A DNA stretch of 64,000 nt from Kiritimatiellia bacterium (GTDB lineage: Bacteria; Verrucomicrobiota; Kiritimatiellia; RFP12; JBMNHG01). The translations under genes and the position numbers were made by a program. The DNA is taken from positions 760,654 through 824,653 of the forward strand of contig JBMNHG010000002.1 of the NCBI GenBank assembly GCA_050950285.1, given 5' to 3'. The notes under the pieces are model-generated. The model made no database searches. It worked only from the letters and a program-made list of their open reading frames with translations, and was not told the origin of the DNA. Shown here in pieces: positions 9,124-54,880 of the stretch (the first letter of the stretch is position 1; each line of letters starts with the position of its first letter).

Positions 9124-9145
9124 GGGCGATTCCGGGGCGGATGGA

Positions 9146-10486
<1,341 letters not shown>

Positions 10487-17721: not shown

Positions 17722-17813
17722 CCCAGGATTCGATTCGTGGGATACTTTCCGCGAATGGTCAAGACGGTCCAACCCGATCTCCGTCTCTCCTCCTCCCCCA
17801 CCCCCAAACCCGG

Positions 17814-33929: not shown

Positions 33930-34378
33930 CGGCCCGGAGGTTCCCGGGCAATTCGCCGATCCGTCCGATCCGACCGATTCCGCCAACCCGCCCGCCGCGA
34001 TCGATTCCGTCCGCACCGGGTCGTGCCACCTCGTCCGCGACGGCTTCAAGACCCTTCGCCCCGCCGAGACCGGCACCGACTTCCCCTGCTATGCCATCGA
34101 AGAGGAGTCGCTTGCCCAGGGCGCAAGGATGCGCCCGACAAAGTTTTGGCATTGTTTTTTTGCATCGACATCCTGTATCCTTGGCTACGTCGCTATTGTG
34201 TTGTTTTGTTTTCCATTCCGCGTTCCATTCCAAGATGGCGCTTCATGTCATTCCAACCACTCTTCCCATGGAAAACGATTGACTTTTCACTTCTGGCGCG
34301 GTGCGTCGCCGCGCAGAAAACAAAACGAAAAACAACCCTGCAAAGCCACGTCCCCTGCCGGGGAGAAAGGAGCCAGCA

Positions 34379-40517: not shown

Positions 40518-43500
40518 GTGTTGGCAATGTGGGTGGCGATCTGCGGGAACCGTGTATACGGGCCTTCTGCACGGTGGCCACCCCGCCCTTTGCGTGACGT
40601 TCCTCGCCACGCTGGGCCTCTCCTGGCGCAAGCGCAAGCGCACGCCGCCTGCCGGCCCTTGATGGTCCCCGCAAACGCCCCTCCATCCGGAACCGCTTCT
40701 GCTCCGGTGTCATGAATCTTGCGCTACAGGGGTGGATCAAACAAGGCTTGCCGCCGCCGTTGGCCCGTGCTACGTTCCCCACCATGGATACAAGTTGCAT
40801 TTCCTCCCTTGGGCCGCAGTTCCGGCGGCGCGCCGTTTTTCTCCGGGGCATTGCCGCCTGTGCCGCCGACGGCGCCGTGATCCTTCTGCGGTAGAGCCAT
40901 GGGACTCCTGCAGTCGATACGCCATTGGATGTTCGCGGGCGCCTGCCTGCTGGCCGGCGTGCCGCTGCTCTTCTGCATCGGCGCCTGGGCCGGGACGTCG
41001 CCCGGCCTGCGCCGCCTCTTCCGCGCTCTCGGCGACCGGTTCCGCTCGCTTGCGCCCTCCGTCAGGGCGGCGCTCTCCGCCCTCCTGGCGGTCGCCACCC
41101 TGCACGGCGTCCCGAAGGTGCCGCCCGGAAGCAACGCCCCGTCTTCCGGCCCTCCCCCGGCGGGCATGGTTTCCGGCGGCCTCCCGGCGCGGCCCGCGCG
41201 CGGCCCCTCCTCCGGCCCCCGCCTGACCGCCGGCCAGTACCGGGCCGGCTTCGCGCTCGCGCGCGTCGCCACCAATCCGTCTCCCGCCCTGGCCTCCGTC
41301 CCGTCGAACGCCGTCGTCCACGCCCCCTGGGCCCGCTACGGGGTGGCCGAGGACACCTTCTGGCTTCCCGCCACCAACTGGTCCTTCACCCTCGGCACCA
41401 ACCGCGTCGGGGGGCTGCACGTCTCCAGCAGCGGCACGCTCTCCTTCGGTTGGCCCAAGGGCTCGCCCCGCGCCCGCCGGATGCCCGACGGCTCGGGCCT
41501 CGACTTCCTCGCCCCCTTGCAGACCTCCCTCGGCATCGTCCCGCCGGCCGGACGCTTCTGGCACGCCCCGACCGCCTCCAACAGCCTGCTGCTCGCCTGG
41601 CAGGACGTCTTCGCCGGCCGCGACGCCGGCCTCCCCGTCACCTTCCAGGCCGAACTCTTCCCCTCCGGCGACTTCGTCTACCGCTACGACCTGTCCCGGC
41701 TGTCCGCCACCAACGCGCCGCCCGCCACCAACTGGGTCGTCGGCGCCCAGCACGGCGGCGGCGGCGAGACCTTCGCCTTCGGCGGCACGGGCGTCCTCGT
41801 CCACGGCCTCGAACTCCACTGGCGCGCCTTCGGCATGCTCGATCCGGACATCGCCGACCACGACGGCGACGGACTCTCCACCTGCGACGAGGTGATGGTC
41901 CACGGCACCGACCCCCGCCTGCCCGACATCGACCTCGACGGCCTCGCGGACCCGGACGAACTGGCCCTCGGAACCGGCCCGCGCAATCCCGACGCCGACG
42001 GCGACGGGCTGCCGGACGGCATCGACCCGGAGCCGTTTGCCTGGAACGATCCCGACGCCGACGCCGACGGCGACGGCTGCCCCCTCTGGCAGGAACTGCT
42101 CCATGGGACCAGCGACGCGGTCCCCGGCGACGTGGCACGACTCCTGGCCGACGGCTTCCGCACCGTCGTCTTCACCGTCGCCGGCACGCCCGGCCCCGGC
42201 ACGGTGCTGGCGCTTGGCGGCCGTCCCCTCCTGCTGGAGGGACGGGAAGAGTTCAGCCTCGACCTGCCCGACGGCTCGTCCATCCCCCTCGCGCTCGGCA
42301 ACGCCCCCGGCGTCTCGGTGTCGGCCGCCTCGACCGGCTGCATCGTCCTGGCCGGCCGCACCGGCGGCCTGGCGCCCGGCGGGAAGGGCGCGGGCGCGGC
42401 GACCCTGGTGTTGCCGGCCGTCACCGTCGGTTCCGGCGGGATCGTCTGCCTGCACGATGCGCATCAGCCGATCGTGGCCAGCGTCACGGACGGCCTTCCG
42501 GGAACCTACAACTGGGAGTGGATCAACGGCGCCATCTATGGCGGCAGAAGCCCCGTGATATCGCCATCGTGGATCCTGCCCGGCCGGCTCACGGTGCGGT
42601 TCCTGCCCGACGACGGGAACGGGGTCGGGTGCGGGACGTCCGCGATGGTCGAGCAGTGCCACCGCTTCTATTGCGACCATGGCCGGCCGGCGCGCGAGTG
42701 CGGCATCTGCACGGGCGGAAGTCCGGAGGAGTGGTGTTCGCTTCACGGCGAGTGGAAATGCGTCTGCGCCTGCCTGACGCTGGGCGGCGGCGGGATGCTG
42801 GCGCCGGGTGGCGAAGCCGGCTTCATGCTTGGCTCCGAAAATGACGGTTGCATGCGCCACATCCACCACGCGCGCTGCTGCGCCTGTCCCGGGCACATGG
42901 CGCTGGGCGGCTGGTGGGCGGAGAAGAAGACCAACGTGGTCCGCCGGATCTCGGCGCGCCTCGATGTGCGGCGCGACGGCGTCCCGGTCGCGGCCGGCGA
43001 CCGCTTCGCCGGCCCGGCCCCGCTGACGGCCGGGGGGCTGGTTCCCAGCACGGCGTTCGGCGACGCCCAAGTCGTCGCCAGCCACGAGCTGCATCCGTCG
43101 CACACGGCCACCTCGTCCTGGACGGTGGCCGCCATCGGCCTCGACGCGGCGGGCACTGCCGGCGGGCACTGCCGCATCCGCGGCGGCACCGGCTGCGTCT
43201 CGCGCGTGGCGGTCCTCACCGAGTCGGCGCTGGCGGAGGGAAGCCTGCGGCTCGCCGCCTCCGCGGGGTTGCGCTTCAGCGTTGTCGAGGGCGCGCCCTG
43301 GGCCGCCGCACGGTCGGCCCTCACGAACACGCCCCCCGCCTCGGTCGCGGCCAGCCGCGACTTCTGGCTAAGCGCCCAGGTTGGCGGTGATTACGAGCTG
43401 GGCTACAAGCTGCTCGATCCCGCGCAAAGGGTCCGCCTCTCGACCAACCTCCTCGTCGAGGCCATCGTCGCCAGACTGGCGACGAACGCCTACTACACCG

Positions 43501-43720
43501 CCTGCGGGAGCACCGCCGGGATCACCGTCAACCTCGCGCCCTCCAGCCACGACCCCGAAGGCTACACGCTCAGCCTCGACGGCACTCCCATCGCCGACGG
43601 CCAGCCGCCCTGGCCGGTGTCCGTCGGCAACCTCGCCGTCGGCGCGCACTCCCTGACGGTGCAGTCCGCCACCTTCCCCGACCTCGCGGACGAGGCCACG
43701 CTGTATGTCGTGAGAGTAGA
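40518..43720 (+). repeat. direct repeat copy A (~3.2 kb, >99% identical to 45419..48620): promoter region plus 5' 2.8 kb of toxin gene
   Basis: Base-for-base comparison of the two regions shows only ~10 substitutions; identity ends right after codons ...ATLYVVRVD. Confidence 0.8.
40577..40653 (+). repeat. ~75-bp copy of the 3' end of lnt (incl. stop codon) at left edge of toxin unit A
   Basis: CCCGCCCTTTGCGTGACGTTCCTCGCCACGCTGGGCCTCTCCTGGCGCAAGCGCAAGCGCACGCCGCCTGCCGGCCCTTGA versus lnt 33853..33929 (CCCGCCCTTTGCGTGACGCTTCTCGCCACGCTGGGCCTCTCCTGGCGCAAGCGCACGCCGCCTGCCGACCCTTGA). Confidence 0.55.
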
Positions 43721-44699
43721 CACCATTGAAGCCTCATCTCCGGTTGCCACCAATTCGCCGCAGCTTTTTGATGGTCACAAGACCAACTTTGGTAATCCGT
43801 GTTCCGCTGTTTCACCTGGCCAAGCGCTCATCATATTCTATGACGCCGTTATCGACGCTAGCTATAATGTTCAAGACTTCGATATCACACTCAAAGCAAA
43901 TGTCCTGCCAACAAGTCTAACGGCCAACCAACTTAATGAAAGCTGGGCCAAGGTAGAAGGTCCATCTTCTGGTAACCTGAACCGGACAGACACCTTCGAG
44001 GTCAAATTCCAGAACCCGAAAGTGGGTGGGTTGTATCAGTTTGAATTTGATCTAGGGTTGACTGGTTGCGCCAAGAGTGGAGCGAATGTGGACTTGCCGC
44101 TTGCAGGTGCTGATATGACCACATGGCTTGACACAGAGACCAAGGCTGTTGGTACTTGGGCAACCATGCACCGTGCTTTAACAGAGATGGCCAACTACAG
44201 TGCGATTCCTGGTGTTACCAAATACAATGTTTATCGAACATGGTGTTTGATATCCAGTTCGGACTTCGACTACACATTTGATCCTGTTGATGCTCAGCGA
44301 CAAGCACCATGTAGGCGTTTCCAACCACCGGCGGGCTCATATGGTTATGTCACTGTCAACGGCGTTGTTGTTCACGGCAGCAAACTCAACAATATGATGT
44401 GGGCGCTTTTTGGTAGATATTGGGGATACAGCGAAACTAGTCTCCGCATGGGCGCGCATTTGAACCAACTTGGACGAAACCTGAGAATTGACGGTGCAAC
44501 ATCACAGAATTCCATTGGCCTGGGTTCTGACATCCACAACAATCCTGCAGCCAACATCACGAACATATTGACGCATACAAGCCTTCGATCACTGCAAGAC
44601 CCATCGTCACTGATCGAAGAAAGGCTCTGGCCATCACCATATCCTGCAGAAGCCGGAAATTCATTTTTTAATCGACCAACGCTGTCAACAACGCCATAG
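40899..44699 (+). CDS. polymorphic toxin candidate A (1266 aa): signal/TM N-terminus, TSP3-like Ca-binding repeats, Cys/His-rich module, conserved pre-toxin junction, unique low-GC C-terminal domain (~340 aa)
   Basis: MGLLQSIRHWMFAGACLLAGVPLLFCIGAWAG signal-like N-terminus; DPDIADHDGDGLSTCDEV / DIDLDGLADPDE / NPDADGDGLPDGIDPEPF / DPDADADGDGCPLWQE repeats; CHRFYCDHGRPARECGICTGG...CMRHIHHARCCACPGH; junction PDLADEATLYVVRVD then divergent tail at ~47% GC. Confidence 0.7.
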   Translation: MGLLQSIRHWMFAGACLLAGVPLLFCIGAWAGTSPGLRRLFRALGDRFRSLAPSVRAALSALLAVATLHGVPKVPPGSNAPSSGPPPAGMVSGGLPARPARGPSSGPRLTAGQYRAGFALARVATNPSPALASVPSNAVVHAPWARYGVAEDTFWLPATNWSFTLGTNRVGGLHVSSSGTLSFGWPKGSPRARRMPDGSGLDFLAPLQTSLGIVPPAGRFWHAPTASNSLLLAWQDVFAGRDAGLPVTFQAELFPSGDFVYRYDLSRLSATNAPPATNWVVGAQHGGGGETFAFGGTGVLVHGLELHWRAFGMLDPDIADHDGDGLSTCDEVMVHGTDPRLPDIDLDGLADPDELALGTGPRNPDADGDGLPDGIDPEPFAWNDPDADADGDGCPLWQELLHGTSDAVPGDVARLLADGFRTVVFTVAGTPGPGTVLALGGRPLLLEGREEFSLDLPDGSSIPLALGNAPGVSVSAASTGCIVLAGRTGGLAPGGKGAGAATLVLPAVTVGSGGIVCLHDAHQPIVASVTDGLPGTYNWEWINGAIYGGRSPVISPSWILPGRLTVRFLPDDGNGVGCGTSAMVEQCHRFYCDHGRPARECGICTGGSPEEWCSLHGEWKCVCACLTLGGGGMLAPGGEAGFMLGSENDGCMRHIHHARCCACPGHMALGGWWAEKKTNVVRRISARLDVRRDGVPVAAGDRFAGPAPLTAGGLVPSTAFGDAQVVASHELHPSHTATSSWTVAAIGLDAAGTAGGHCRIRGGTGCVSRVAVLTESALAEGSLRLAASAGLRFSVVEGAPWAAARSALTNTPPASVAASRDFWLSAQVGGDYELGYKLLDPAQRVRLSTNLLVEAIVARLATNAYYTACGSTAGITVNLAPSSHDPEGYTLSLDGTPIADGQPPWPVSVGNLAVGAHSLTVQSATFPDLADEATLYVVRVDTIEASSPVATNSPQLFDGHKTNFGNPCSAVSPGQALIIFYDAVIDASYNVQDFDITLKANVLPTSLTANQLNESWAKVEGPSSGNLNRTDTFEVKFQNPKVGGLYQFEFDLGLTGCAKSGANVDLPLAGADMTTWLDTETKAVGTWATMHRALTEMANYSAIPGVTKYNVYRTWCLISSSDFDYTFDPVDAQRQAPCRRFQPPAGSYGYVTVNGVVVHGSKLNNMMWALFGRYWGYSETSLRMGAHLNQLGRNLRIDGATSQNSIGLGSDIHNNPAANITNILTHTSLRSLQDPSSLIEERLWPSPYPAEAGNSFFNRPTLSTTP

Positions 44700-44717
44700 C
44701 AAGGTAGGGAGAACATC

Positions 44718-45212
44718 ATGAAGCGAATCGTATCAGCATTGTCATTTGCGCTGCTGTTTGCCTTGGCAAACGCCATGGCCCAGAAGCCGCCGGAACCAAT
44801 AGAAGTTGCCAATAGCGTCTCCAACCTGTGGATGGCGCAAGACTTCAGCGGGATGAGCACATACGTGTCTAATCTCTACAACACATGTTCTAACTACGTG
44901 CCCGCCATCTTGGCGGCAAGTTTTCATGACGGTGTCTATTTGGGTAAACTGTCTCAGGCCTTCGACAAGCTAGCCCGTGTCAGGGGATGTGTTACTAATA
45001 ACCCGCAGAGTTTTACGGTCGAGTTTCGAGATCTTCTTGGAGAATTGCAATCCGAAACGAAGAGGGAAATTGATCTCCATGCCAGAATGGGCACATCGCC
45101 CCAGGCCTTGGAATCCAATGCGTCCCCACAAACTGTTCGCAGTTTATGGGGCACCGAGCTTTTGCCTGAAATTAATATTCTCTATTACGCACCTGCCACC
45201 AATGTGCCATGA
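44718..45212 (+). CDS. small secreted protein, candidate immunity protein for toxin A C-terminal domain
   Basis: Starts 19 nt after toxin A stop with SD AGGGAG; signal peptide MKRIVSALSFALLFALANAMA; low GC like the toxin tail. Confidence 0.5.
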   Translation: MKRIVSALSFALLFALANAMAQKPPEPIEVANSVSNLWMAQDFSGMSTYVSNLYNTCSNYVPAILAASFHDGVYLGKLSQAFDKLARVRGCVTNNPQSFTVEFRDLLGELQSETKREIDLHARMGTSPQALESNASPQTVRSLWGTELLPEINILYYAPATNVP

Positions 45213-45274
45213 GGTGAACATGCGTAAATTTTTGCCTGCCGTGACAACGAATGATGTGGCGCAATGGGTACAGA

Positions 45275-45410
45275 AAGGCGAGCATAACCAACAAGCCCAT
45301 GACCTACAGGCGTTTTCTGAAAGCTATCGAAGACGACGGACTGCTAGGCAATTAGCACCGTCCAAAAAGAGTCACAATGAGCCGTATTCACACTGCTGCG
45401 TGTTTGTTCA
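45275..45410 (+). repeat. junction remnant: duplicate of 52546..52683 (3' end of gene 52164..52634 plus 5' start of gene 52656..53021)
   Basis: Identical run AAAGGCGAGCATAACCAACAAGCCCATGACCTACAGGCG...GGCAATTAGCACCGTCCAAAAAGAGTCACAATGAGCCGTATTCACACTGCTGCGTGTTTGTT in both places; at 45.4 kb it ends abruptly where repeat copy B begins. Confidence 0.65.
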
Positions 45411-45418
45411 TGTTTGTA

Positions 45419-48400
45419 AGTGTTGGCAATGTGGGTGGCGATCTGCGGGAACCGTGTATACGGGCCTTCTGCACGGTGGCCACCCCGCCCTTTGCGTGAC
45501 GTTCCTCGCCACGCTGGGCCTCTCCTGGCGCAAGCGCAAGCGCACGCCGCCTGCCGACCCTTGATGGTCCCCGCAAACGCCCCTCCATCCGGAACCGCTT
45601 CTGCTCCGGCGTCATGAATCTTGCGCTACAGGGGTGGATCAAACAAGGCTTGCCGCCGCCGTTGCCCCGTGCTACGTTCCCCACCATGGATGCAAGTTGC
45701 ATTTCCTCCCTTGGGCCGCAGTTCCGGCGGCGCGCCGTTTTTCTCCGGGCCGTCGCCGCCTGTCTTGTCGCGGCGCCGTGATCCTTCCGAGGTAGAGCCA
45801 TGGGACTCCTGCAGTCGATACGCCATTGGATGTTCGCGGGCGCCTGCCTGCTGGCCGGCGTGCCGCTGCTCTTCTGCCTCGGCGCCTGGGCCGGGACGTC
45901 GCCCGGCCTGCGCCGCCTCTTCCGCGCTCTCGGCGACCGGTTCCGCTCGCTTTCGCCCTCCGTCAGGGCGGCGCTCTCCGCCCTCCTGGCGGTCGCCACC
46001 CTGCACGGCGTCCCGAAGGTGCCGCCCGGAAGCAACGCCCCGTCTTCCGGCCCTCCCCCGGCGGGCATGGTCTCCGGCGGCCTCCCGGCGCGGCCCGCGC
46101 GCGGCCCCTCCTCCGGCCCCCGCCTGACCGCCGGCCAGTACCGGGCCGGCTTCGCGCTCGCGCGCGTCGCCACCAATCCGTCTCCCGCCCTGGCCTCCGT
46201 CCCGTCGAACGCCGTCGTCCACGCCCCCTGGACCCGCTACGGGGTGGCCGAGGACACCTTCTGGCTCCCCGCCACCAACTGGTCCTTCACCCTCGGCACC
46301 AACCGCGTCGGGGGGCTGCACGTCTCCAGCAGCGGCACGCTCTCCTTCGGTTGGCCCAAGGGCTCGCCCCGTGCCCGCCGGATGCCCGACGGCTCGGGCC
46401 TCGACTTCCTCGCCCCCCTGCAGACCTCCCTCGGCATCGTCCCGCCGGCCGGACGCTTCTGGCACGCCCCGACCGCCTCCAACAGCCTGCTCCTCGCCTG
46501 GCAGGACGTCTTCGCCGGCCGCGACGCCGGCCTCCCCGTCACCTTCCAGGCCGAACTCTTCCCCTCCGGCGACTTCGTCTACCGCTACGACCTGTCACGG
46601 CTGTCCGCCACCAACGCGCTGCCGGCCGCCAACTGGGTCGTCGGCGCCCAGCACGGCGGCGGCGGCGAGACCTTCGCCTTCGGCGGCACGGGCGTCCTCG
46701 TCCACGGCCTCGAACTCCACTGGCGCGCCTTCGGCATGCTCGACCCGGACATCGCCGACCACGACGGCGACGGACTCTCCACCTGCGACGAGGTGATGGT
46801 CCACGGCACCGACCCCCGCCTGCCCGACACCGACCTCGACGGCCTCGCGGACCCGGACGAACTGGCCCTCGGAACCGGCCCGCGCAATCCCGACGCCGAC
46901 GGCGACGGGCTGCCGGACGGCATCGACCCGGAGCCGTTTGCCTGGAACGATCCCGACGCCGACGCCGACGGCGACGGCTGCCCCCTCTGGCAGGAACTGC
47001 TCCATGGGACCAGCGACGCGGTCCCCGGCGACGTGGCACGACTCCTGGCCGACGGCTTCCGCACCGTCGTCTTCACCGTCGCCGGCACGCCCGGCCCCGG
47101 CACGGTGCTGGCGCTTGGCGGCCGTCCCCTCCTGCTGGAGGGACGGGAAGAGTTCAGCCTCGACCTGCCCGACGGCTCGTCCATCCCCCTCGCGCTCGGC
47201 AACGCCCCCGGCGTCTCGGTGTCGGCCGCCTCGACCGGCTGCATCGTCCTGGCCGGCCGCACCGGCGGCCTGGCGCCCGGCGGGAAGGGCGCGGGCGCGG
47301 CGACCCTGGTGTTGCCGGCCGTCACCGTCGGTTCCGGCGGGATCGTCTGCCTGCACGATGCGCATCAGCCGATCGTGGCCAGCGTCACGGACGGCCTTCC
47401 GGGAACCTACAACTGGGAGTGGATCAACGGCGCCATCTATGGCGGCAGAAGCCCCGTGATATCGCCATCGTGGATCCTGCCCGGCCGGCTCACGGTGCGG
47501 TTCCTGCCCGACGACGGGAACGGGGTCGGGTGCGGGACGTCCGCGATGGTCGAGCAGTGCCACCGCTTCTATTGCGACCATGGCCGGCCGGCGCGCGAGT
47601 GCGGCATCTGCACGGGCGGAAGTCCGGAGGAGTGGTGTTCGCTTCACGGCGAGTGGAAATGCGTCTGCGCCTGCCTGACGCTGGGCGGCGGCGGGATGCT
47701 GGCGCCGGGTGGCGAAGCCGGCTTCATGCTTGGCTCCGAAAATGACGGTTGCATGCGCCACATCCACCACGCGCGCTGCTGCGCCTGTCCCGGGCACATG
47801 GCGCTGGGCGGCTGGTGGGCGGAGAAGAAGACCAACGTGGTCCGTCGGATCTCGGCGCGCCTCGATGTGCGGCGCGACGGCGCCCCGGTCGCGGCCGGCG
47901 ACCGCTTCGCCGGCCCGGCCCCGCTGACGGCCGGGGGGCTGGTTCCCAGCACGGCGTTCGGCGACGCCCAAGTCGTCGCCAGCCACGAGCTGCATCCGTC
48001 GCACACGGCCACCTCGTCCTGGACGGTGGCCGCCATCGGCCTCGACGCGGCGGGCACTGCCGGCGGGCACTGCCGCATCCGCGGCGGCACCGGCTGCGTC
48101 TCGCGCGTGGCGGTCCTCACCGAGTCGGCGCTGGCGGAGGGAAGCCTGCGGCTCGCCGCCTCCGCGGGGTTGCGCTTCAGCGTTGTCGAGGGCGCGCCCT
48201 GGGCCGCCGCACGGTCGGCCCTCACGAACACGCCCCCCGCCTCGGTCGCGGCCAGCCGCGACTTCTGGCTAAGCGCCCAGGTTGGCGGTGATTACGAGCT
48301 GGGCTACAAGCTGCTCGATCCCGCGCAAAGGGTCCGCCTCTCGACCAACCTCCTCGTCGAGGCCATCGTCGCCAGACTGGCGACGAACGCCTACTACACC

Positions 48401-48620
48401 GCCTGCGGGAGCACCGCCGGGATCACCGTCAACCTCGCGCCCTCCAGCCACGACCCCGAAGGCTACACGCTCAGGCTCGACGGCACTCCCATCGCCGACG
48501 GCCAGCCGCCCTGGCCGGTGTCCGTCAGCAACCTCGCCGCCGGCGCGCACTCCCTGACGCTTCAATCCAACACCTTCCCCGACCTCGCGGACGAGGCCAC
48601 GCTGTATGTCGTGAGAGTTG
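45419..48620 (+). repeat. direct repeat copy B (~3.2 kb) of 40518..43720
   Basis: See copy A; includes second lnt-3'-like element at 45478..45554. Confidence 0.8.
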
Positions 48621-49378
48621 ATTCTGTTGAGCCGGACTCCATGGCAAATCTTCAGGAGATCGATGACGGTGACGGCAATTCCAGGACGCGTGTTTTTGTC
48701 GTTCCTGTGGAACAGGCCTTGGAGTTTCCCTCAACTCCTGTTACGGTGCGGGCAAACCTGGTGCCGACCATTTCCGAGAGCCAGCTTCCCGCCGGCTGGA
48801 CTATTGAGGGTGGCACAGGCTCTGGAAAACTGACCAGAATTATTTGGCGGTACGTTTCAACGGGAGCTTCCAAAACAGAATTCACTTTTTCGTGCGGCGG
48901 CACAGACTCGGGATTTAAGACAACCGTCTATGTCTATGATGCAAGGGTGGCTCTTTTCGCTGACGAGGGGGACTTGCAGAATCTTGAGGTTGGACATAGC
49001 TGGGGGCGCTACAGCATAGATGACGACACATGTACGGATCTAATTGACTCCGATTACTGGGACTATTTTCAAGAGATAGGCTTCTGGCCTTCCATAGCGG
49101 GAAATGCAGACTGTGCAGGAGACGTTCGCTTGGGGGGTGATGCGGTAGGGGCACATTTGCCGACAGGCTGGAAGGAATATCCTATCAGCTTAATTCCCCT
49201 GTTGCTTGCCTTGCCACAGGTGAAAGCCAGCGATGACGCTCCGCCTTGGTACAACCTTTTCAACTATAACTGCACGGACTACGCCATTGGCATTGGCGAG
49301 GCCGTCAACATCTACACGATGGACGCTTCCGGCTTGAGCACTCCCTGGGCCTTCTCGGGCTGGTTGAATGCGCATTGA
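45800..49378 (+). CDS. polymorphic toxin candidate B (1192 aa): same core as A, different low-GC C-terminal domain (~250 aa)
   Basis: First ~940 aa >99% identical to toxin A; after PDLADEATLYVVRVD the tail is SVEPDSMANLQEIDDGDGNSRTRVFVV... with HSWGRY and NYNCTDYAIGIGEA motifs (possible His/Cys enzyme; speculative). Confidence 0.7.
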   Translation: MGLLQSIRHWMFAGACLLAGVPLLFCLGAWAGTSPGLRRLFRALGDRFRSLSPSVRAALSALLAVATLHGVPKVPPGSNAPSSGPPPAGMVSGGLPARPARGPSSGPRLTAGQYRAGFALARVATNPSPALASVPSNAVVHAPWTRYGVAEDTFWLPATNWSFTLGTNRVGGLHVSSSGTLSFGWPKGSPRARRMPDGSGLDFLAPLQTSLGIVPPAGRFWHAPTASNSLLLAWQDVFAGRDAGLPVTFQAELFPSGDFVYRYDLSRLSATNALPAANWVVGAQHGGGGETFAFGGTGVLVHGLELHWRAFGMLDPDIADHDGDGLSTCDEVMVHGTDPRLPDTDLDGLADPDELALGTGPRNPDADGDGLPDGIDPEPFAWNDPDADADGDGCPLWQELLHGTSDAVPGDVARLLADGFRTVVFTVAGTPGPGTVLALGGRPLLLEGREEFSLDLPDGSSIPLALGNAPGVSVSAASTGCIVLAGRTGGLAPGGKGAGAATLVLPAVTVGSGGIVCLHDAHQPIVASVTDGLPGTYNWEWINGAIYGGRSPVISPSWILPGRLTVRFLPDDGNGVGCGTSAMVEQCHRFYCDHGRPARECGICTGGSPEEWCSLHGEWKCVCACLTLGGGGMLAPGGEAGFMLGSENDGCMRHIHHARCCACPGHMALGGWWAEKKTNVVRRISARLDVRRDGAPVAAGDRFAGPAPLTAGGLVPSTAFGDAQVVASHELHPSHTATSSWTVAAIGLDAAGTAGGHCRIRGGTGCVSRVAVLTESALAEGSLRLAASAGLRFSVVEGAPWAAARSALTNTPPASVAASRDFWLSAQVGGDYELGYKLLDPAQRVRLSTNLLVEAIVARLATNAYYTACGSTAGITVNLAPSSHDPEGYTLRLDGTPIADGQPPWPVSVSNLAAGAHSLTLQSNTFPDLADEATLYVVRVDSVEPDSMANLQEIDDGDGNSRTRVFVVPVEQALEFPSTPVTVRANLVPTISESQLPAGWTIEGGTGSGKLTRIIWRYVSTGASKTEFTFSCGGTDSGFKTTVYVYDARVALFADEGDLQNLEVGHSWGRYSIDDDTCTDLIDSDYWDYFQEIGFWPSIAGNADCAGDVRLGGDAVGAHLPTGWKEYPISLIPLLLALPQVKASDDAPPWYNLFNYNCTDYAIGIGEAVNIYTMDASGLSTPWAFSGWLNAH

Positions 49379-49386
49379 GGTTTTTG

Positions 49387-50238
49387 ATGAGAGGCAAATT
49401 GAAATCATCCGCAGTCGTCTGGCTCCTGGCGGGGCTTCTGCTGGCGGCCTTTCTTATGTGGAGTACGCATAGAAAACAGACTGCACGTCTTCCGGCTGCT
49501 CCGCATGAACGGGCGGCGGTCGAGGGCGTCCCGGCTGTCGCGCCGGAAGTTACCGGCATAACCTCTACGGAGAACGATTCTTTAGGATTCACTACTCATA
49601 CTCAGGGCGTTTCCACGGTGCGAAAGACCCAGTGGAAGGCGGCACTGCCCACCGGAATCACATTCACTGCCGGCGCATTAGGCGTTGAAAGGCCAGTGTT
49701 GCTTCCGCTCGTCGATGCCGTGAGCAATGCCGTCCTCTCAACAGACCGGATCCTGAAGGCGGGGGATTATCAGGTGAACGAGTTCGGCCGCTCTGTCTGG
49801 CTGACGTCCGAGGACAAGGAGCGATTAATCGTTTGGACCATCTTTCCGTACAGGACGAACAACGTGGTAGGCTCCGTTGAGGCGACAGCTTATCAGGACG
49901 CTACACTTACGCTGAAAGACCCTTCGCGCAGTTTCCGGATGAGTTTCCATCCTGAGACAGGAGCATTGCTCAGTTTTTCATGGGCAGATAAGCATGAAGT
50001 ATTGATTGTTCGGACAAACAACTGGGCAGTAAACTACGCTAGACATCTGAAAGATAAGAAACGCCTTGTTATGCGATGGGATGCCCAGGGAAATCTTGTT
50101 TCAAGCAATGTCTATGACTGGGCCAAACGTGGACGTGTCATTGGTGGCTCGCCGCAGTCGAACAAGACGGCCTACCGCATTGGGCCGACTTCTTCCGTGG
50201 AAGCCGCAACTGAGTCATGGCGTCGCAAGAATGAATAA
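49387..50238 (+). CDS. membrane-anchored small protein (284 aa), immunity candidate for toxin B tail
   Basis: ATG 9 nt after toxin B stop; N-terminal signal-anchor MRGKLKSSAVVWLLAGLLLAAFLMW; ~50% GC. Confidence 0.5.
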   Translation: MRGKLKSSAVVWLLAGLLLAAFLMWSTHRKQTARLPAAPHERAAVEGVPAVAPEVTGITSTENDSLGFTTHTQGVSTVRKTQWKAALPTGITFTAGALGVERPVLLPLVDAVSNAVLSTDRILKAGDYQVNEFGRSVWLTSEDKERLIVWTIFPYRTNNVVGSVEATAYQDATLTLKDPSRSFRMSFHPETGALLSFSWADKHEVLIVRTNNWAVNYARHLKDKKRLVMRWDAQGNLVSSNVYDWAKRGRVIGGSPQSNKTAYRIGPTSSVEAATESWRRKNE

Positions 50239-50345
50239 CGGTCGGATGTCTGGAAAGGCCAAGCAGGGGACAGGGAGTCGCCTTGAGTGGCAGAGGAACA
50301 GCGTTTTCTGCCTGTCTGTCTGAACACACATTAAGGGGTTTTTTG

Positions 50346-51170
50346 ATGAGAGGCAAATTGAAATCATCCGCGGTCGTCTGGTTTCTGGCGGGGCTACTGC
50401 TGGCGGCCTTTCTTATGTGGAGTACGCATAGAAAACAGACTGCGCGTCTTCCGGCTGCTCCGCATGAACGGGCAGCGGTCGAGGGCGTCCCGGCTGTCGC
50501 GCCGGAAATCACCGGCAAAACCTCTACGGAGAACGATTCTTTAGGATCCACTACTCATACTCAGGGCGTTTCCACGGTGCGAAAGACCCAGTGGAAGGCG
50601 GCGGCGCTGCCCACCGGAATCACATTCACTGCCGGCGCATTAGGCGTTGAAAGGCCAGTGTTGCTTCCGCTCGTCGATGCCGTGAGCAATGCCGTCCTCT
50701 CAACAGACCGGATCCTGAAGGCGGGGGATTATCAGGTGAACGAGTTCGGCCGCTCTGTCTGGCTGACGTCCGAGGACAGGGAGCGATTAATCGTTTGGAC
50801 CATCTTTCCATACAGGACGAACAACGTGGTAGGCTCCGTTGAGGCGACAGCTTATCAGGACGCTACACTCACGCTGAAAGACCCTTCGCGCAGTTTCCGG
50901 ATGAGTTTCTATCCGAACAGCGGAGAACTGCGCGACTTCTGTTGGGCTGATTCCCGTGAGGTTTTATTTGTTTATACTAACGGTCCTTTCTCTGTTGACT
51001 ATGCAAGACGCATCAAAGGGACGGTATCATTAGAGATGCGATGGGATGGGATGCTCAGGGAAATCTTGTTTCAAGCAATGTCTATGACTGGGCCAAACGT
51101 GGACGTGTCATTGGTGGCTCGCCGCAGCCGAACAAGACGGCCTACCGCATTGGGCCGACTTCTTCCGTAG
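50346..51170 (+). CDS. paralog of 49387..50238 with divergent C-terminal third and a 5-nt insertion frameshift near the 3' end (possibly decaying)
   Basis: First ~190 codons ~95% identical at nucleotide level; at ~51040 CGATGGGATGGGATGCTCAGGG versus CGATGGGATGCCCAGGG in the paralog puts the rest into the frame of spurious ORF 50066..50323. Confidence 0.45.
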   Translation: MRGKLKSSAVVWFLAGLLLAAFLMWSTHRKQTARLPAAPHERAAVEGVPAVAPEITGKTSTENDSLGSTTHTQGVSTVRKTQWKAAALPTGITFTAGALGVERPVLLPLVDAVSNAVLSTDRILKAGDYQVNEFGRSVWLTSEDRERLIVWTIFPYRTNNVVGSVEATAYQDATLTLKDPSRSFRMSFYPNSGELRDFCWADSREVLFVYTNGPFSVDYARRIKGTVSLEMRWDGMLREILFQAMSMTGPNVDVSLVARRSRTRRPTALGRLLP

Positions 51171-51229
51171 AAGCCGCAACTGAGTCATGGCGTCGCAAGG
51201 ACAAGCCAGATTAACAAGGAGAATTCGCG

Positions 51230-51703
51230 ATGCATCGTTATTTGTTTGTTTCAATATGCTGGCTTTTGGGTGCGTCTGTCGCATATGCGGGCGACACGAA
51301 TTTTGTGGCGGCTTTTAATGTGCGATGGCAAAGCAAAGACGCTTCGAACATTCTGGTTTTCATGGAAAATCAGGTTAACAGCAATCGGAATGTAGAGACA
51401 TTATGCGCCCGCGGCATTGTCGCTGCGGCTCTCCAGGAGTGGGGACGTGGAGCAACGAATTATCTTGGCCAGGCTATTAGTGCAACAGAGACCAGCCCTT
51501 TATATTCAACATCAGGGAAAGCGCGCATAGTCCGCCTGATCGGTAACGTCAAAGGATGTTTCGAGGCGCTTGCAGATGATACAGGTGAAGCGTCAAACTC
51601 CCAGCCATCGTGGAATACAAGCAGCCATGCCGCAATCTTCAATGAACTTGGCGCAGAAGTTCCCTTCCTTGATGTTCTGCAGGAAATTTCAACGGTGGAG
51701 TAA
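51230..51703 (+). CDS. small secreted protein (157 aa), immunity-array member
   Basis: Signal peptide MHRYLFVSICWLLGASVAYA; low GC. Confidence 0.45.
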   Translation: MHRYLFVSICWLLGASVAYAGDTNFVAAFNVRWQSKDASNILVFMENQVNSNRNVETLCARGIVAAALQEWGRGATNYLGQAISATETSPLYSTSGKARIVRLIGNVKGCFEALADDTGEASNSQPSWNTSSHAAIFNELGAEVPFLDVLQEISTVE

Positions 51704-51705
51704 AA

Positions 51706-51921
51706 ATGCGCTGGTTAGGGGTTATTGTGTTTTCGATCTTGTCGTTCGTGGTTCTCCTTTATGCGTTTCTGGTCATTGCAAAATACATGGCCAATTCTTC
51801 TGGCGGAGCACCAGCTTTGGGTTTCGGTATCCTCGCCATTGCGATACCCTTCGCGGTTTTAATAGGGATACCTCTTGTGTTTGTTTTGTTTTATGCAGTA
51901 TTGCGATCACGGAAAAAATGA
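51706..51921 (+). CDS. 71-aa two-TM membrane mini-protein
   Basis: MRWLGVIVFSILSFVVLLYAFLVIAKY...ILAIAIPFAVLIGIPLVFVLFYAV; starts 3 nt after previous stop. Confidence 0.4.
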   Translation: MRWLGVIVFSILSFVVLLYAFLVIAKYMANSSGGAPALGFGILAIAIPFAVLIGIPLVFVLFYAVLRSRKK

Positions 51922-52151
51922 GAGAATGGAGCTGGGACGCTGGCTGGGCTGTCGGCGGTGGTGCCGCTTATGGAACCACCGTCTCCAATCTCGTGGTGGA
52001 CATATGGGACGAGCACAAGAACGACGACAAGAACCAGAAGCTATGGCCCAACCATGCCCCGTTCGACAACTATGTCGCCCCGCAGTTCTTCTTTGGCGAA
52101 CAGGACGAGCGCTTCACCTCGCCCACTTTTCTTTACATGCCCATTCCCTGA
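51918..52151 (+). CDS. 77-aa Trp/Gly-rich mini-protein, translationally coupled (ATGA) to previous ORF
   Basis: MREWSWDAGWAVGGGAAYGTTVSNLVVDIWDEHKNDD...; ATG overlaps TGA of 51706..51921. Confidence 0.35.
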   Translation: MREWSWDAGWAVGGGAAYGTTVSNLVVDIWDEHKNDDKNQKLWPNHAPFDNYVAPQFFFGEQDERFTSPTFLYMPIP

Positions 52152-52163
52152 AAGGAGCAAGAC

Positions 52164-52634
52164 ATGAGAACTCACACCCACACCGCCATGCTTTCCACCT
52201 TTTGCCTTCTGGCATGGATGCATTTCGCGCCGCCGCTGCGAGCGCAGACCAACTTCTATGACCACGTCACGCGCATGTGGCTGAACGGACAGAAGCAGGA
52301 AGTGTACTGCATAGCAACCAACCGTCTGGCTGTCGCTTCAAACGATATTGCAGGTTTGGTGTTAAAGATGGAATACGAGCTTGCGCTCTGCGATTTTAAT
52401 CTTACCAATACATTGGCAAAGGCAGTTGCAGTCGGAAGTAATATTACAACAACCAACTTTGTCCAATTATATCCACTTCTCCAGCTTGAAGCATCAGACT
52501 TGCTGGTTTTTCTCGCAAGCTACTCGACCAATTGTCTCGCGGAAGACAGGGCAAAGGCGAGCATAACCAACAAGCCCATGACCTACAGGCGTTTTCTGAA
52601 AGCTATCGAAGACGACGGACTGCTAGGCAATTAG
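52164..52634 (+). CDS. small secreted protein (156 aa), immunity-array member
   Basis: Signal peptide MRTHTHTAMLSTFCLLAWMHFAPPLRAQ; its last 25 codons are duplicated at 45275..45353. Confidence 0.5.
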   Translation: MRTHTHTAMLSTFCLLAWMHFAPPLRAQTNFYDHVTRMWLNGQKQEVYCIATNRLAVASNDIAGLVLKMEYELALCDFNLTNTLAKAVAVGSNITTTNFVQLYPLLQLEASDLLVFLASYSTNCLAEDRAKASITNKPMTYRRFLKAIEDDGLLGN

Positions 52635-52655
52635 CACCGTCCAAAAAGAGTCACA

Positions 52656-53021
52656 ATGAGCCGTATTCACACTGCTGCGTGTTTGTTCGTTTTTGTAGGC
52701 GCTAGTTTCGCGTTCGGGGATGATGCACAATTCTCCGAACGGCGTTTATTGCTGGCGTCAAACTGTGTTCATTTGACAGAAAACAGTTATATTCCTTTGC
52801 GTACCGAACTCAGCAACTATACTGCTGTGTGTACCAATGTCGACAATCTGGCCGAGAGTCGCCTTCTCCTTGCGACGATCCTGACGGAATCCAGCAAAAC
52901 CAATGATTTATATCAGGCGATTGATTTATGCATGGCGATAACACAACAAGCCACCCAAGAGTGGCAGCGAGCGCTAGGTCATTTCGGGCTTTCTCATGCG
53001 CATGGGTGTGCCAAGAACTAG
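52656..53021 (+). CDS. small secreted protein (121 aa), immunity-array member
   Basis: Signal peptide MSRIHTAACLFVFVGASFAFG; its first ~19 codons are duplicated at 45376..45420, where the paralogous copy is truncated by repeat copy B. Confidence 0.5.
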   Translation: MSRIHTAACLFVFVGASFAFGDDAQFSERRLLLASNCVHLTENSYIPLRTELSNYTAVCTNVDNLAESRLLLATILTESSKTNDLYQAIDLCMAITQQATQEWQRALGHFGLSHAHGCAKN

Positions 53022-53057
53022 GAGCAGCAAATCATTGTTGCAAGTAATGCCGTTCAT

Positions 53058-53279
53058 TTGTTTTCTACTAACGTAATGGTGCAATCAGATAATGCATTGT
53101 TGACATATCTGCGCTCAAGCGGCCAGAACTACTCTTATCATGATGGTTTGCGTTGCATGATTGTTCAGGGATTATGCGGCAAACGGCAATTCGATGACGC
53201 TAGAACGGCAGCAGCCTTGATCGAGAACATCAATTTACGTGTACTCATTGAACAATCAATTGATTTTTACGACAAATAG
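53058..53279 (+). CDS. 73-aa hypothetical cytoplasmic protein
   Basis: ORF only; low GC; MFSTNVMVQSDNALLTYLRSSGQNYSYHDGLRCMIVQGLCGK... Confidence 0.3.
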   Translation: MFSTNVMVQSDNALLTYLRSSGQNYSYHDGLRCMIVQGLCGKRQFDDARTAAALIENINLRVLIEQSIDFYDK

Positions 53280-53283
53280 CCAT

Positions 53284-53694
53284 ATGTGTTTCCATGAAGC
53301 GGAGGCCATCGTCGCCAGACTGGCGACGAACGCCTACTACACCGCCTGCGGGAGCACCGCCGGGATCACCGTCAACCTCGCGCCCTCCAGCCACGACCCC
53401 GAAGGCTACACGCTCAGCCTCGACGGCACTCCCATCGCCGACGGCCAGCCGCCCTGGCCGGTGTCCGTCAGCAACCTCGCCGCCGGCGCGCACTCCCTGA
53501 CGCTTCAATCCAACACCTTCCCCGACCTCGCGGACGAGGCCACGCTGTATGTCGTAGGAGTAGATCTCGACATTGACGCCAACCATGACGGCATCATAGA
53601 CGACGATGACGATGATCCGCTGGAGGAGGATGAGGGAGGCTATGTCTGTGCCAGCACAAACCGCCTTCGCGCAATCGCGGCAAAATCTTCATAG
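53284..53694 (+). other. orphan toxin C-terminal cassette: third copy of the pre-toxin junction (~88 aa) fused to a short novel poly-acidic tail; 5'-truncated relative to full toxin genes
   Basis: 53303..53563 ~identical to 48361..48621 (copy-B-type SVSNLAAGAHSLTLQSNTF); junction reads ATLYVVGVD then LDIDANHDGIIDDDDDDPLEEDEGGYVCASTNRLRAIAAKSS; in-frame ATG at 53284. Confidence 0.55.
53303..53563 (+). repeat. third copy of toxin junction segment (matches 48361..48621 and 43460..43720)
   Basis: ~260-bp near-identity, begins inside codons EAIVARLATNAYY. Confidence 0.7.
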
Positions 53695-53731
53695 ATCGCA
53701 TCGAGTTTAACAAGCTTTACACGGAGTTGCC

Positions 53732-54880
53732 ATGAACAGGCTTATTGTCAGCATTACCCTTCTTACCTGTTTCTGTTCTTTGGCCCATGCACAAGAACCG
53801 TCCGGGATGGACTGCGTTCGCGGATTGGATGCCGCCCTGCAAAAGGACGGGCTTTCCGGCCTGCTGGTTGCCGCGCGCGAACACCGGTGGCAGGCGCCGC
53901 GCATGCCTTCGAAGTGGAGTGTCGGGCATCGTCCGGGAACGGACGAACAGACAAGGGTTGATCTTGCCGCCAGGGAGTTCGGGCGGGAAATGGCCGTGCA
54001 ACTGGAAGCCGTTGCCACCTTGCTTCAACAGCTGCCGCCAGGCGATGAACTGCACCGGCAGGCGCTCCTGCTTTGCGACTTGTCCGACTGGTGCGCCTCG
54101 ACTCCGGGATACGGCAACCTTTTCCTCGCCCAGCGCTGCCTTGATCTCGCCGCCGTCGGTCTGGCGCGGCTTGCCGCGTCCCTGGACTTCCCGCTTGCCG
54201 GGTGCGGGAAGCTGGCCGCACGCATGACCCCGGCGTGGATGGGCGTCGAGGCAAGGGCGCTGACGTTGAACGGCGAGGCGGGAACGAACCTTTTCGCGGT
54301 CGGCGGCACGCAAGCGGACCTGGAGAAGACATGGGGCTCCGGCGGTTTCCTGATGCGGGAGAAGCGATCCGGCAGAACCCGGCCCGAAGGGCAGGCGCCG
54401 GGACGTGGCTTTGTCGAGACTCCGGCGCTCAAGGCCAATCTCGACTTCTTCGAGCGCGACGAGCCGGGGACGGAACCCCTGACGCTTGTCAACTCGTGGG
54501 ATGCCAGACGATACGAGCGGATCGTCAACGGATTGGAGTTGCAAAATGTAAACAAGGCTCTGGCACTCCTGAAGTTCCGCACAGTAATTGGTTGTTTTCC
54601 TGAAAAGATTGAATTCACCGAAGAGCAACTTCGTAAGCGGGACGAGGAAAGAGCCGCATATGCCAGGATGGGCATCAAGGTCAGTAGCATGTATGATGAT
54701 ATGCAGCCTGGTGCCGCCGCCTTTGAACAAGCATGGGATCAGCGAAAAGATAGGAACCCCAAAGACCACAACTTGGATGCGCGGGCATGGCAGGCCTATA
54801 GCGAGGTGAAGAGCGGTCAGTTCTTGGATCAGGACACGCGGGCGGTACGCATGGCCTTGCCGGCCACGAAGGTTCAATGA
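53732..54880 (+). CDS. secreted hypothetical protein (382 aa) downstream of orphan cassette
   Basis: Signal peptide MNRLIVSITLLTCFCSLAHA; no recognisable domain. Confidence 0.45.
   Translation: MNRLIVSITLLTCFCSLAHAQEPSGMDCVRGLDAALQKDGLSGLLVAAREHRWQAPRMPSKWSVGHRPGTDEQTRVDLAAREFGREMAVQLEAVATLLQQLPPGDELHRQALLLCDLSDWCASTPGYGNLFLAQRCLDLAAVGLARLAASLDFPLAGCGKLAARMTPAWMGVEARALTLNGEAGTNLFAVGGTQADLEKTWGSGGFLMREKRSGRTRPEGQAPGRGFVETPALKANLDFFERDEPGTEPLTLVNSWDARRYERIVNGLELQNVNKALALLKFRTVIGCFPEKIEFTEEQLRKRDEERAAYARMGIKVSSMYDDMQPGAAAFEQAWDQRKDRNPKDHNLDARAWQAYSEVKSGQFLDQDTRAVRMALPATKVQ

Follow-up and report, generated by a model that had tools for sequence, protein, structure and literature searches.

Organization of the locus

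The DNA analysed here is a window of 64,000 nucleotides from a Kiritimatiellia bacterium (contig JBMNHG010000002.1, positions 760,654 to 824,653), in which an open reading frame (ORF) of 1266 amino acids (40899-44699), here termed toxin A, is followed directly by an ORF of 164 amino acids (44718-45212), here termed the partner. Both ORFs lie where an earlier note on this DNA had placed them, and the parts of the toxin locus described below (40518-54880) are on the plus strand. The 3′ end of the toxin A gene and the partner gene (43719-45212) together form a probable mobile toxin-immunity cassette.

Toxin A consists of a shared core, or carrier, of 940 amino acids (40899-43718) and a C-terminal tail, tail A. 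The core has an N-terminal hydrophobic segment, Asp-rich TSP3-like repeats, a Cys/His-rich stretch and immunoglobulin (Ig)-like domains; its only family matches are of the TSP3 type (CglD/MtsD, far below the cutoff), with weak matches to PKD and PEGA. Tail A comprises a predicted PKD/Ig-like β domain (residues 1-126, 43719-44096), supported by AlphaFold, K319L-like_PKD matches and Foldseek and forming the first part of the swappable cassette, and a helical domain homologous to Ntox44 (residues 127-326 and the stop codon, 44097-44699), which ends in an extended strand with W304-P305. The Shine-Dalgarno-like sequence AGGGAG (44706-44711) stands 6 nt upstream of the partner ATG, which starts 19 nt past the last base of the toxin stop codon, as the earlier note had read. 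The partner has a predicted Sec signal peptide (residues 1-21, 44718-44780) and a mature part predicted as an all-helical bundle.

Base composition and breakpoint

The earlier note had described tail A and the partner gene as low-GC islands, and recalculation of the guanine-plus-cytosine (GC) content confirmed that the composition is not uniform. In 300-nt sliding windows, the GC content is 0.66-0.80 in the core and 0.48-0.52 from 43650 to 45450. The core has a GC content of 0.735 and a GC content at third codon positions (GC3) of 0.921, compared with 0.484 and 0.468 for tail A (43719-44699) and 0.499 and 0.552 for the partner ORF. The corresponding values for housekeeping genes in the window (MurJ, aldo-keto reductase) are 0.67 and 0.87. 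Windows of 1493 nt over all 64 kb have a mean GC content of 0.668 (standard deviation 0.058, minimum 0.485), and the only ones below 0.55 start in the 43-44 kb and 48-52 kb regions, where the tails and cassettes of this single locus lie. From 48.6 to 54.5 kb the GC content is low throughout.

The drop in GC content coincides with the end of a long repeat. Self-comparison by blastn showed that 40518-43717 recurs at 45420-48618 with 98.8% identity over 3200 nt, made up of 380 nt of upstream sequence and 2820 nt of coding sequence. The second copy belongs to a paralogous gene, toxin B. Identity between the paralogues stops abruptly at 43717/48618 and the GC drop begins at the same base (43717/43718), so that the fall of GC3 from 0.92 to 0.47 is located within a few bases of the recombination breakpoint. 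In the DNA alignment the break lies immediately 3′ of the codons for V-V-R-V-D, and the first codon of the tail starts at 43719. The start of 43720 given for the tail in the earlier note does fall in the low-GC tail but is out of frame.

Structure and family of tail A

The AlphaFold model of tail A (49 sequences), with a predicted local distance difference test (pLDDT) score of 96.1 and a predicted TM-score (pTM) of 0.91, has two domains, the Ig-like domain being packed on the helical domain of ~200 amino acids. The former is made of strands (E2-126, pLDDT 87-98), and the latter of helices 134-158, 166-182, 220-235, 239-254 and 260-274, a small sheet including the hairpin 210-219 and an extended C-terminal segment. 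Pfam matched K319L-like_PKD to the β domain in 28 of 49 family members, and the Foldseek matches for this domain are only Ig domains, those of intimin, invasin, filamin and titin. No structural neighbour of the helical domain was found by Foldseek in the PDB or BFVD, the family profile matched nothing meaningful among the PDB sequences, and direct Pfam and NCBIfam scans of tail A gave nothing significant. A lysozyme-like fold had been considered for the helical domain from the order of its secondary structure elements and was dropped, since no tool result stood behind it. Both peptide motifs quoted in the earlier note are present in the tail.

A single-sequence search found 48 relatives of tail A in metagenome bins of Kiritimatiellae, Lentisphaerae and Verrucomicrobiota. 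When 1.84 billion cluster representatives were searched with a profile, 482 matched at E ≤ 1e-3 and 207 still did so at E ≤ 1e-30. Among the best 150 matches listed, the aligned region ends at or close to the C-terminus, and these proteins are up to 1940 amino acids long. The N-terminal parts of the relatives are diverse (TSP3_bac, Laminin_G_3, NHL propellers, Glucodextran_B, Transglut_core), and some members, such as P0029 and P0047, consist of a signal peptide and the module alone. The motif VVRVD/TIEASS bridges the breakpoint (marked by the slash), with the consensus T-V-(V/L/I)-(K/R)-V-(D/E)-x-I-E-A-S-S in 90 members, and recurs in the unrelated tail-B family as V-x-K-V-E-S-I-E-P-D. This consensus may simply be the strand joining two Ig-like domains.

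Comparisons of the family with Pfam point to the toxin family Ntox44 (PF15607), which is matched by 8 of the 49 members with a best E-value of 9.5e-4; the match of P0042 spans model positions 13-102 of 104. The Ntox44 motifs are DxK, GNxxxG and DxxxD, and no immunity family was given for Ntox44 (Zhang et al., PMC3482391). TseR of Yersinia pseudotuberculosis, a PAAR-Ntox44 protein, is reported to be an RNase (PMC13577199) and has no solved structure (10.64898/2026.05.10.723254). The tail-A family divides into four motif subfamilies, and subfamily 3, with the pattern 'MNHK ... TVTISGYVFGKDHIGNFLFSY ... PDNPDDQAAY', has all three Ntox44 motifs. All seven cropped subfamily-3 domains match Ntox44, three of them above the gathering score of 24 bits (27.5, 25.7 and 24.9 bits). 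Profile-profile comparisons of the helical domains by hhalign connected the tail-A subfamily to subfamily 3 (99.1%, E 4.5e-19, 165 columns), subfamily 2 (97.9%, E 3.5e-13, 161 columns) and subfamily 4 (99.9%, E 5.5e-36, 170 columns). The link to subfamily 3, taken together with the lack of a direct Pfam match, indicates that tail A shares ancestry with Ntox44 without reaching membership at the Pfam level. Judged by these profiles, the helical domain belongs to the Ntox44 superfamily as a divergent member, with the core of similarity at approximately residues 185-275 (44271-44543).

In the motif positions, tail A has D184-Y-T for DxK, N224-N225-MMW-A for GNxxxG and D258-GAT-S262 for DxxxD, keeping D184 (44268-44270), N225 (44391-44393) and D258. 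Over 178 sequences the conservation is 99% for T212, 93% for N225, 85% for K222, 84% for D184 and 81% for Y185; D258 is conserved in 64%, with N in a further 30%, and G269 and W304-P305 are conserved in 97-98%. D184, Y185, T212, K222, N225 and D258 are candidate active-site residues. Cys28 of the Ig-like domain and Cys198 of the helical domain are both present in 66 sequences, both missing in 77 and present singly in only 7, a pattern compatible with an inter-domain disulfide made outside the cytoplasm.

The partner and its linkage to the tail

The N-terminus of the partner, MKRIVSALSFALLFALANAMA followed by Q, reads as a classical Sec signal peptide by sequence inspection and hydropathy scan, and all 22 relatives of the partner (54-82% identity) start with a signal-peptide-like segment. 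An identical protein is present in NCBI, from a metagenome-assembled genome (MAG) of a Kiritimatiellia bacterium. The relatives have no Pfam domain, and the partner itself has no significant match in NCBIfam or in Pfam, including the tetratricopeptide repeat (TPR) families of the latter. AlphaFold predicts an all-helical bundle with moderate confidence (pLDDT 74.5, pTM 0.70), in which the C-terminal tail is of low confidence yet highly conserved. The nearest PDB folds of this model are TPR proteins (3ma5, IpgC, PcrH) and 14-3-3, none of them significant: 3ma5, among the best Foldseek matches, has a probability of 0.98 and a TM-score of 0.76 on the target, and E-values among the best TPR matches are 0.4-3. 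Toxin A and the partner both end in Pro/Thr-rich sequences (RPTLSTTP, 44670-44696; APATNVP, 45186-45209) that are conserved within each family; their likeness may be a coincidence.

In 17 of the 19 informative loci from other organisms, the partner gene immediately follows a homologue of tail A. The case named in the earlier note as refuting, an ORF absent or unlinked in all homologous loci, therefore does not hold. In seven of these loci (L001-L007) the gap between the partner and the tail-A homologue upstream of it (53-81% identity) is 12-60 nt, and the cores there have nothing but TSP3-type repeats in common with core A. L012, from a Verrucomicrobia MAG, retains the pair at just 41% toxin identity; it is the sole locus from a scan of genome contigs, in which exact-pattern seeding was strict. 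Among 13 further metagenome loci, 11 have upstream sequence, and the tail is directly upstream in 9 of these 11. The exceptions are L027 and, with an IS256-type transposase where the toxin would be, L023.

In the other subfamilies, every tail-A-family gene examined is followed by a small gene 10-18 nt downstream, with a partner family specific to each subfamily. For the subfamily-3 toxins P0038 and P0042, the partners (L009_993, L011_3085) show 34-35% identity (blastp, E 1e-29) to the product of 51230-51703 in our window, and the partner of the subfamily-2 toxin P0055 shows 46% identity (E 2e-38) to that of 52164-52634. The pairing of a subfamily-2 toxin with a partner of the 52164 type recurs in L020, where two pairs stand in tandem. 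In L008, a 4-Mb genome of ~35% GC, toxin P0047 is followed by five tandem paralogues (7424-9710) that are 47-92% identical and have two N-terminal transmembrane helices with a basic loop between them; by the positive-inside rule, this loop would place their C-terminal domain in the periplasm. A further gene of 468 amino acids lies 3′ of this array. The four partner families are all exported or membrane-anchored through two transmembrane helices, and no homology between them was detectable. The small signal-peptide ORFs of the window were considered as paralogues of the partner, and a shared origin was set aside as unproven, with 15-16% identity and hhalign values of at most 35% that covered only the signal peptide and first helix.

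Partner genes also occur without a tail, at 51230-51703 and in L023 and L027. Judged from gene order, these orphans, the tandem arrays and the partners kept beside truncated toxins are the behaviour of immunity genes. This bears on a different view of the module, namely that it is an adhesin or ligand-binding head and that the partner serves in the periplasm as a TPR-type chaperone or as an adaptor for export. The carriers do hold adhesin-like domains (TSP3, Ig/PKD, Laminin_G, NHL), the nearest folds of the partner include the type III secretion chaperones IpgC and PcrH, although not significantly, and no clear catalytic constellation is invariant in the tail. However, the tail is homologous to a toxin family and one carrier accepts three unrelated tails. 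The orphan partners, the five tandem paralogues of L008 and the truncated tails beside intact partners indicate immunity genes rather than dedicated chaperones, and an adhesin with its chaperone is highly improbable.

Arrays of orphan genes in other genomes (L006 2498-5800; L011 4854-7090) hold cassettes with DUF6973 (PF22322). Two of three such cassettes (L006 2498-3999, L011 4854-7090) are followed by a lipoprotein-type partner of 186 amino acids with an L-A-S-C lipobox, and the third by a signal-peptide protein of 201 amino acids without this lipobox. By its sequence context, DUF6973 is a further kind of tail that is paired with an exported partner at loci of this sort. A literature search found nothing on DUF6973, and one on an immunity protein of TseR gave nothing usable.

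Exchange of the cassette

The earlier note had taken the composition break as the mark of a horizontally exchanged module of C-terminal toxin and immunity gene. The comparisons of loci bear this out: the pair occurs behind carriers that share only TSP3-type repeats, a second high-GC host repeats the compositional break, and the window itself holds an orphan homology arm, a toxin remnant and orphan partners. In L012 the module has a GC content of 0.51-0.52 between flanks of 0.67-0.68 and is again a low-GC island. In L001 it matches its host (0.56-0.57 vs. flanks of 0.57-0.59). Lineages of ~55% GC are plausible reservoirs of the cassette, and no donor can be named.

Low GC could instead reflect local mutational or selective pressure on a fast-evolving region long resident in the lineage. 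In most loci the partner gene is richer in AT than its toxin gene, and the L001 module has the composition of its host; a donor therefore cannot be identified from composition alone. However, the fall of GC3 within a few bases of the breakpoint, the homologues of 77-81% identity behind cores sharing only TSP3-type repeats and the low-GC island in L012 are at odds with this view, and the orphan arms supply a mechanism of exchange. We consider long residence without transfer improbable.

In several other loci the cassettes have insertion sequence (IS) elements (ISL3, Y1 transposase, IS256) next to them, whereas none adjoins the cassettes of this window. Carriage by a phage or plasmid was weighed and not retained: no relatives were found in IMG/VR viral contigs, and tblastn with an Ntox44-like domain gave no match in PLSDB. 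The locus fragments in metagenome assemblies because of its repeats. Two metagenome contigs of the same population join the locus differently. The contig of L013 carries window positions 41238-45418 joined to 52553-53428, skipping 45420-52552 via a 145-nt repeat, and that of L032 carries 49839-53565 joined to 48359-49740, which puts tail B after the orphan arm via a 264-nt repeat, an order that would fit a tandem or circular unit of 4943 nt. These junctions could be real recombinants or, equally, assembly paths through the repeats.

Toxin B, orphan cassettes and flanking genes

Downstream of the partner, a remnant (45274-45418) combines the end of a partner gene of the 52164 type with the start of a gene of the 52656 type and repeats 145 nt of 52553-52697 at 98.6% identity. 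The second copy of the upstream region and core (45420-48618) follows, with the toxin B gene at 45800-49378 (1192 amino acids). Tail B (48620-49378, GC 0.534) is a different cassette family, with an Ig-like domain and a domain carrying the invariant pattern GHsW...H...NCTD; its 18 members have invariant G-H126-s-W, H179, Y211 and N217-C218-T-D. Tail B has no Pfam or PDB match, and the order of His before Cys is reminiscent of permuted papain-like hydrolases. Two tandem partner genes with transmembrane anchors, ~91% identical, follow tail B (49375-51214; first copy 49375-50238, second copy 50283-51170 with its end continued in 51041-51214). The second copy is frame-shifted near 51040 and is probably a pseudogene.

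Further cassette parts lie in the remaining low-GC DNA. An orphan partner gene (51230-51703, 157 amino acids, signal peptide) matches in type the genes found behind P0038 and P0042, the Ntox44-like toxins of subfamily 3. A C-terminal remnant of a subfamily-2 toxin (51855-52151, ~98 amino acids and a stop codon; 50-66% identity by tblastn with P0055, P0065 and P0067) adjoins a partner gene of the cognate type (52164-52634, 156 amino acids, signal peptide), and a small ORF with a signal peptide and no assigned family is located at 52656-53021 (121 amino acids). Orphan cassette C (53302-53694, self-blastn) consists of a 264-nt homology arm (53302-53565), which copies the last 264 nt of the core and is 98.5% identical to copy B, and a short different tail of 43 codons (53566-53694) with an acidic DxDxNxDG-like start and a stop codon. 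It is followed by an ORF of 382 amino acids (53732-54880, GC 0.61) with a signal peptide and no family match; the two are probably a degraded cassette with its partner. The other small ORFs of the window gave no significant Pfam or NCBIfam match, Rfam found only a tRNA at 1667-1739, and a scan for promoters and terminators stayed at chance level.

The flanking genes encode envelope housekeeping functions (heptosyltransferase, MurJ, BatA/VWA, an lnt-like gene, lipid A acyltransferase). An ORF ending at 33929 resembles apolipoprotein N-acyltransferase, and an 89-nt copy of the 3′ end of this lnt-like gene (33854-33935, 88-89% identical) lies upstream of both toxins (40581-40669, 45483-45571), in the first case within the duplicated upstream region (40518-40898, 98.8% identity by self-blastn). 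The copy encodes the C-terminal transmembrane helix and basic tail of the lnt-like product and is probably what is left of a past rearrangement or insertion site. The Cys/His-rich stretch of the core (residues ~575-665, window 42620-42900), CHRFYCDHG...CGICTGG...CVCAC...HIHHARCCACPGH, has no family match and could be a metal-binding or disulfide-knot module. An ORF of 2324 amino acids (17718-24692) with three Gly_rich_2 domains and DUF1565 encodes a very large protein of the secreted or surface type and is apparently unrelated to the toxin locus.

Proposed mechanism and site of action

The segment 43719-45212 is likely to be a mobile toxin-immunity cassette, formed by the 3′ end of the gene for an exported polymorphic toxin of 1266 amino acids and the gene that follows it. 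The tail would be toxic and the partner would be its cognate immunity protein. Tails would be swapped by homologous recombination through the conserved core end, with the breakpoint after VVRVD; alternative modules are stored at the locus behind a homology arm. The carrier would be exported by Sec through its N-terminal hydrophobic segment. Pfam and NCBIfam scans recognised no Rhs, PAAR, VgrG, LXG or two-partner secretion (TPS) domain in the core and no trafficking domain in the core or the carriers of the relatives; the core has only the hydrophobic segment. Domain scans recognised no membrane-translocation domain in the carriers, and no genes of type V, VI or VII secretion systems (T5SS, T6SS, T7SS) were found across the 64 kb. 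The locus thus works like the class of polymorphic toxins with a signal peptide only that Zhang, Aravind et al. 2012 labelled 'T2SS' (PMC3482391).

Since every partner type is periplasmic or membrane-tethered, the partner probably encounters and neutralises the toxin in the periplasm. The chances that the toxin also acts in the periplasm or envelope, as the earlier note had suggested from the signal peptide of the partner, are about even: the suggestion is strengthened by four unrelated partner families that are all exported or membrane-anchored and by the Cys pair, whereas homology to Ntox44, with a member reported as an RNase, speaks against it.

Several points weigh against the toxin-immunity assignment or its periplasmic setting. 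Toxicity, immunity and binding are all inferred. Tail A (44196-44600) has no Pfam match to Ntox44 even at E ≤ 1, and the full protein has none at E ≤ 0.1. In tail A the K of DxK is replaced by T, the second D of DxxxD by S and the first glycine of GNxxxG (224) by N; the other glycine (229) is not kept either. No polar residue is strictly invariant except T212 (99%), so that a catalytic mechanism is not assignable. The co-occurrence of Cys28 and Cys198 tracks the subfamily boundaries, and the TPR chaperones IpgC and PcrH among the nearest folds of the partner model would also fit a chaperone role. Moreover, the single characterised Ntox44 toxin, TseR, reportedly acts as a cation-dependent RNase (PMC13577199), which argues for a cytoplasmic target and is awkward with a periplasmic immunity protein.

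This last point can be accommodated if the tail keeps the canonical Ntox44 RNase activity in the cytoplasm of the target and the exported partner captures it in the periplasm, whether of the producer while the toxin is being exported or of sibling cells while it is being taken up. In favour of such an arrangement, tail A is homologous to Ntox44, which Zhang et al. 2012 place among the predicted RNases (PMC3482391) and for which RNase activity of TseR is reported (PMC13577199; 10.64898/2026.05.10.723254). Subfamily 3, which keeps the GN and DxPDDQ motifs, also has signal-peptide partners, showing that the location of the partner is uncoupled from motif loss. However, the four unrelated partner families are all extracytoplasmic, no membrane-translocation domain is recognised in the carriers, two motif residues, the K of DxK and the second D of DxxxD, are missing from the tail-A subfamily, and the probable inter-domain disulfide would need reduction on entry. 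The nuclease toxins known to us use cytoplasmic immunity proteins, which also counts against it. A cytoplasmic RNase intercepted in the periplasm is possible but rather unlikely.

A broader proposal, which we put forward tentatively and consider less likely than not, is that a large clade of invariably Ig-fused, Ntox44-derived toxins in the Planctomycetes-Verrucomicrobia-Chlamydiae (PVC) superphylum has moved its battlefield to the periplasm, with at least four unrelated families of exported immunity proteins recruited convergently and delivery requiring no known machinery other than Sec. The fold would either have switched from RNA to a substrate in the envelope or have remained that of a nuclease toxin, neutralised by being intercepted in the periplasm.

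The toxin-immunity cassette described here would document warfare by polymorphic toxins among Kiritimatiellia and related bacteria, a little-studied and largely uncultured part of the PVC group. Neither the carrier type nor the junction appears in the standard catalogues, and two families have no Pfam model, the Ig-fused Ntox44-related module (at least 482 clusters) and the signal-peptide-bearing partner. The extracytoplasmic partners raise the question of whether Ntox44-type domains are always cytoplasmic RNases or whether immunity is possible in the periplasm.

Comparison with known systems

The locus resembles polymorphic toxin systems (PMC3482391) in several ways: in its large exported protein the N-terminal part is conserved while the C-terminal toxin domain varies, a small gene follows directly 3′, orphan cassettes of tail and partner carry a homology arm, and cassettes are exchanged between unrelated carriers. 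Alternative C-termini, a co-varying adjacent partner and orphan cassettes are all present, and a trafficking domain or secretion system is not. It differs from these systems in lacking Rhs/YD, filamentous haemagglutinin (FHA), PAAR, LXG, MafB or recognised pre-toxin domains; Pfam gave no matches to the YD/Rhs and FHA repeats that are hallmarks of Rhs and CdiA. Its carriers, from Kiritimatiellia, Lentisphaerae and Verrucomicrobia, are instead TSP3- and Ig-rich, an Ig-like domain is part of what is swapped, and at the junction T-V-x-K-V-D/E-x-I-E (VVRVD/TIEASS in toxin A) stands in place of VENN or PxxxxDPxGL. As in the orphan modules of CdiA-CT/CdiI and Rhs-CT/RhsI, a conserved stretch is kept downstream for recombination and tail and partner stay paired. 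However, the carriers and the secretion route are different, and CdiI and RhsI are cytoplasmic.

Toxin-immunity pairs acting in the periplasm include Tse1/Tsi1, Tse3/Tsi3 and Tle/Tli of T6SSs, colicin M/Cmi and pesticin/Pim, and immunity proteins made of helical repeats are known. The present pair shares with the Tse/Tsi, Tle/Tli, colicin M/Cmi and pesticin/Pim pairs an immunity protein with a signal peptide, lipobox or membrane anchor that would act in the periplasm. Unlike the toxins of such pairs, tail A has no similarity in sequence or fold, as far as was found, to amidases, muramidases, lipases or colicin M.

Compared with Ntox44 (PF15607, TseR), the tail has an all-α domain homologous by profile, with the central hairpin, the xN motif helix, the D-containing helix and the C-terminal placement in common. 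It differs in falling below the Pfam threshold and in the replaced K of DxK, G of GN and second D of DxxxD, and has additional helices at its N-terminus, an Ig-like domain fused to it, a conserved W-P strand at its C-terminus and partners that are predicted to be periplasmic. The new features of the system are its partner family, the Ig fusion and the putative periplasmic immunity, whereas the toxin itself is a divergent offshoot of a known family.

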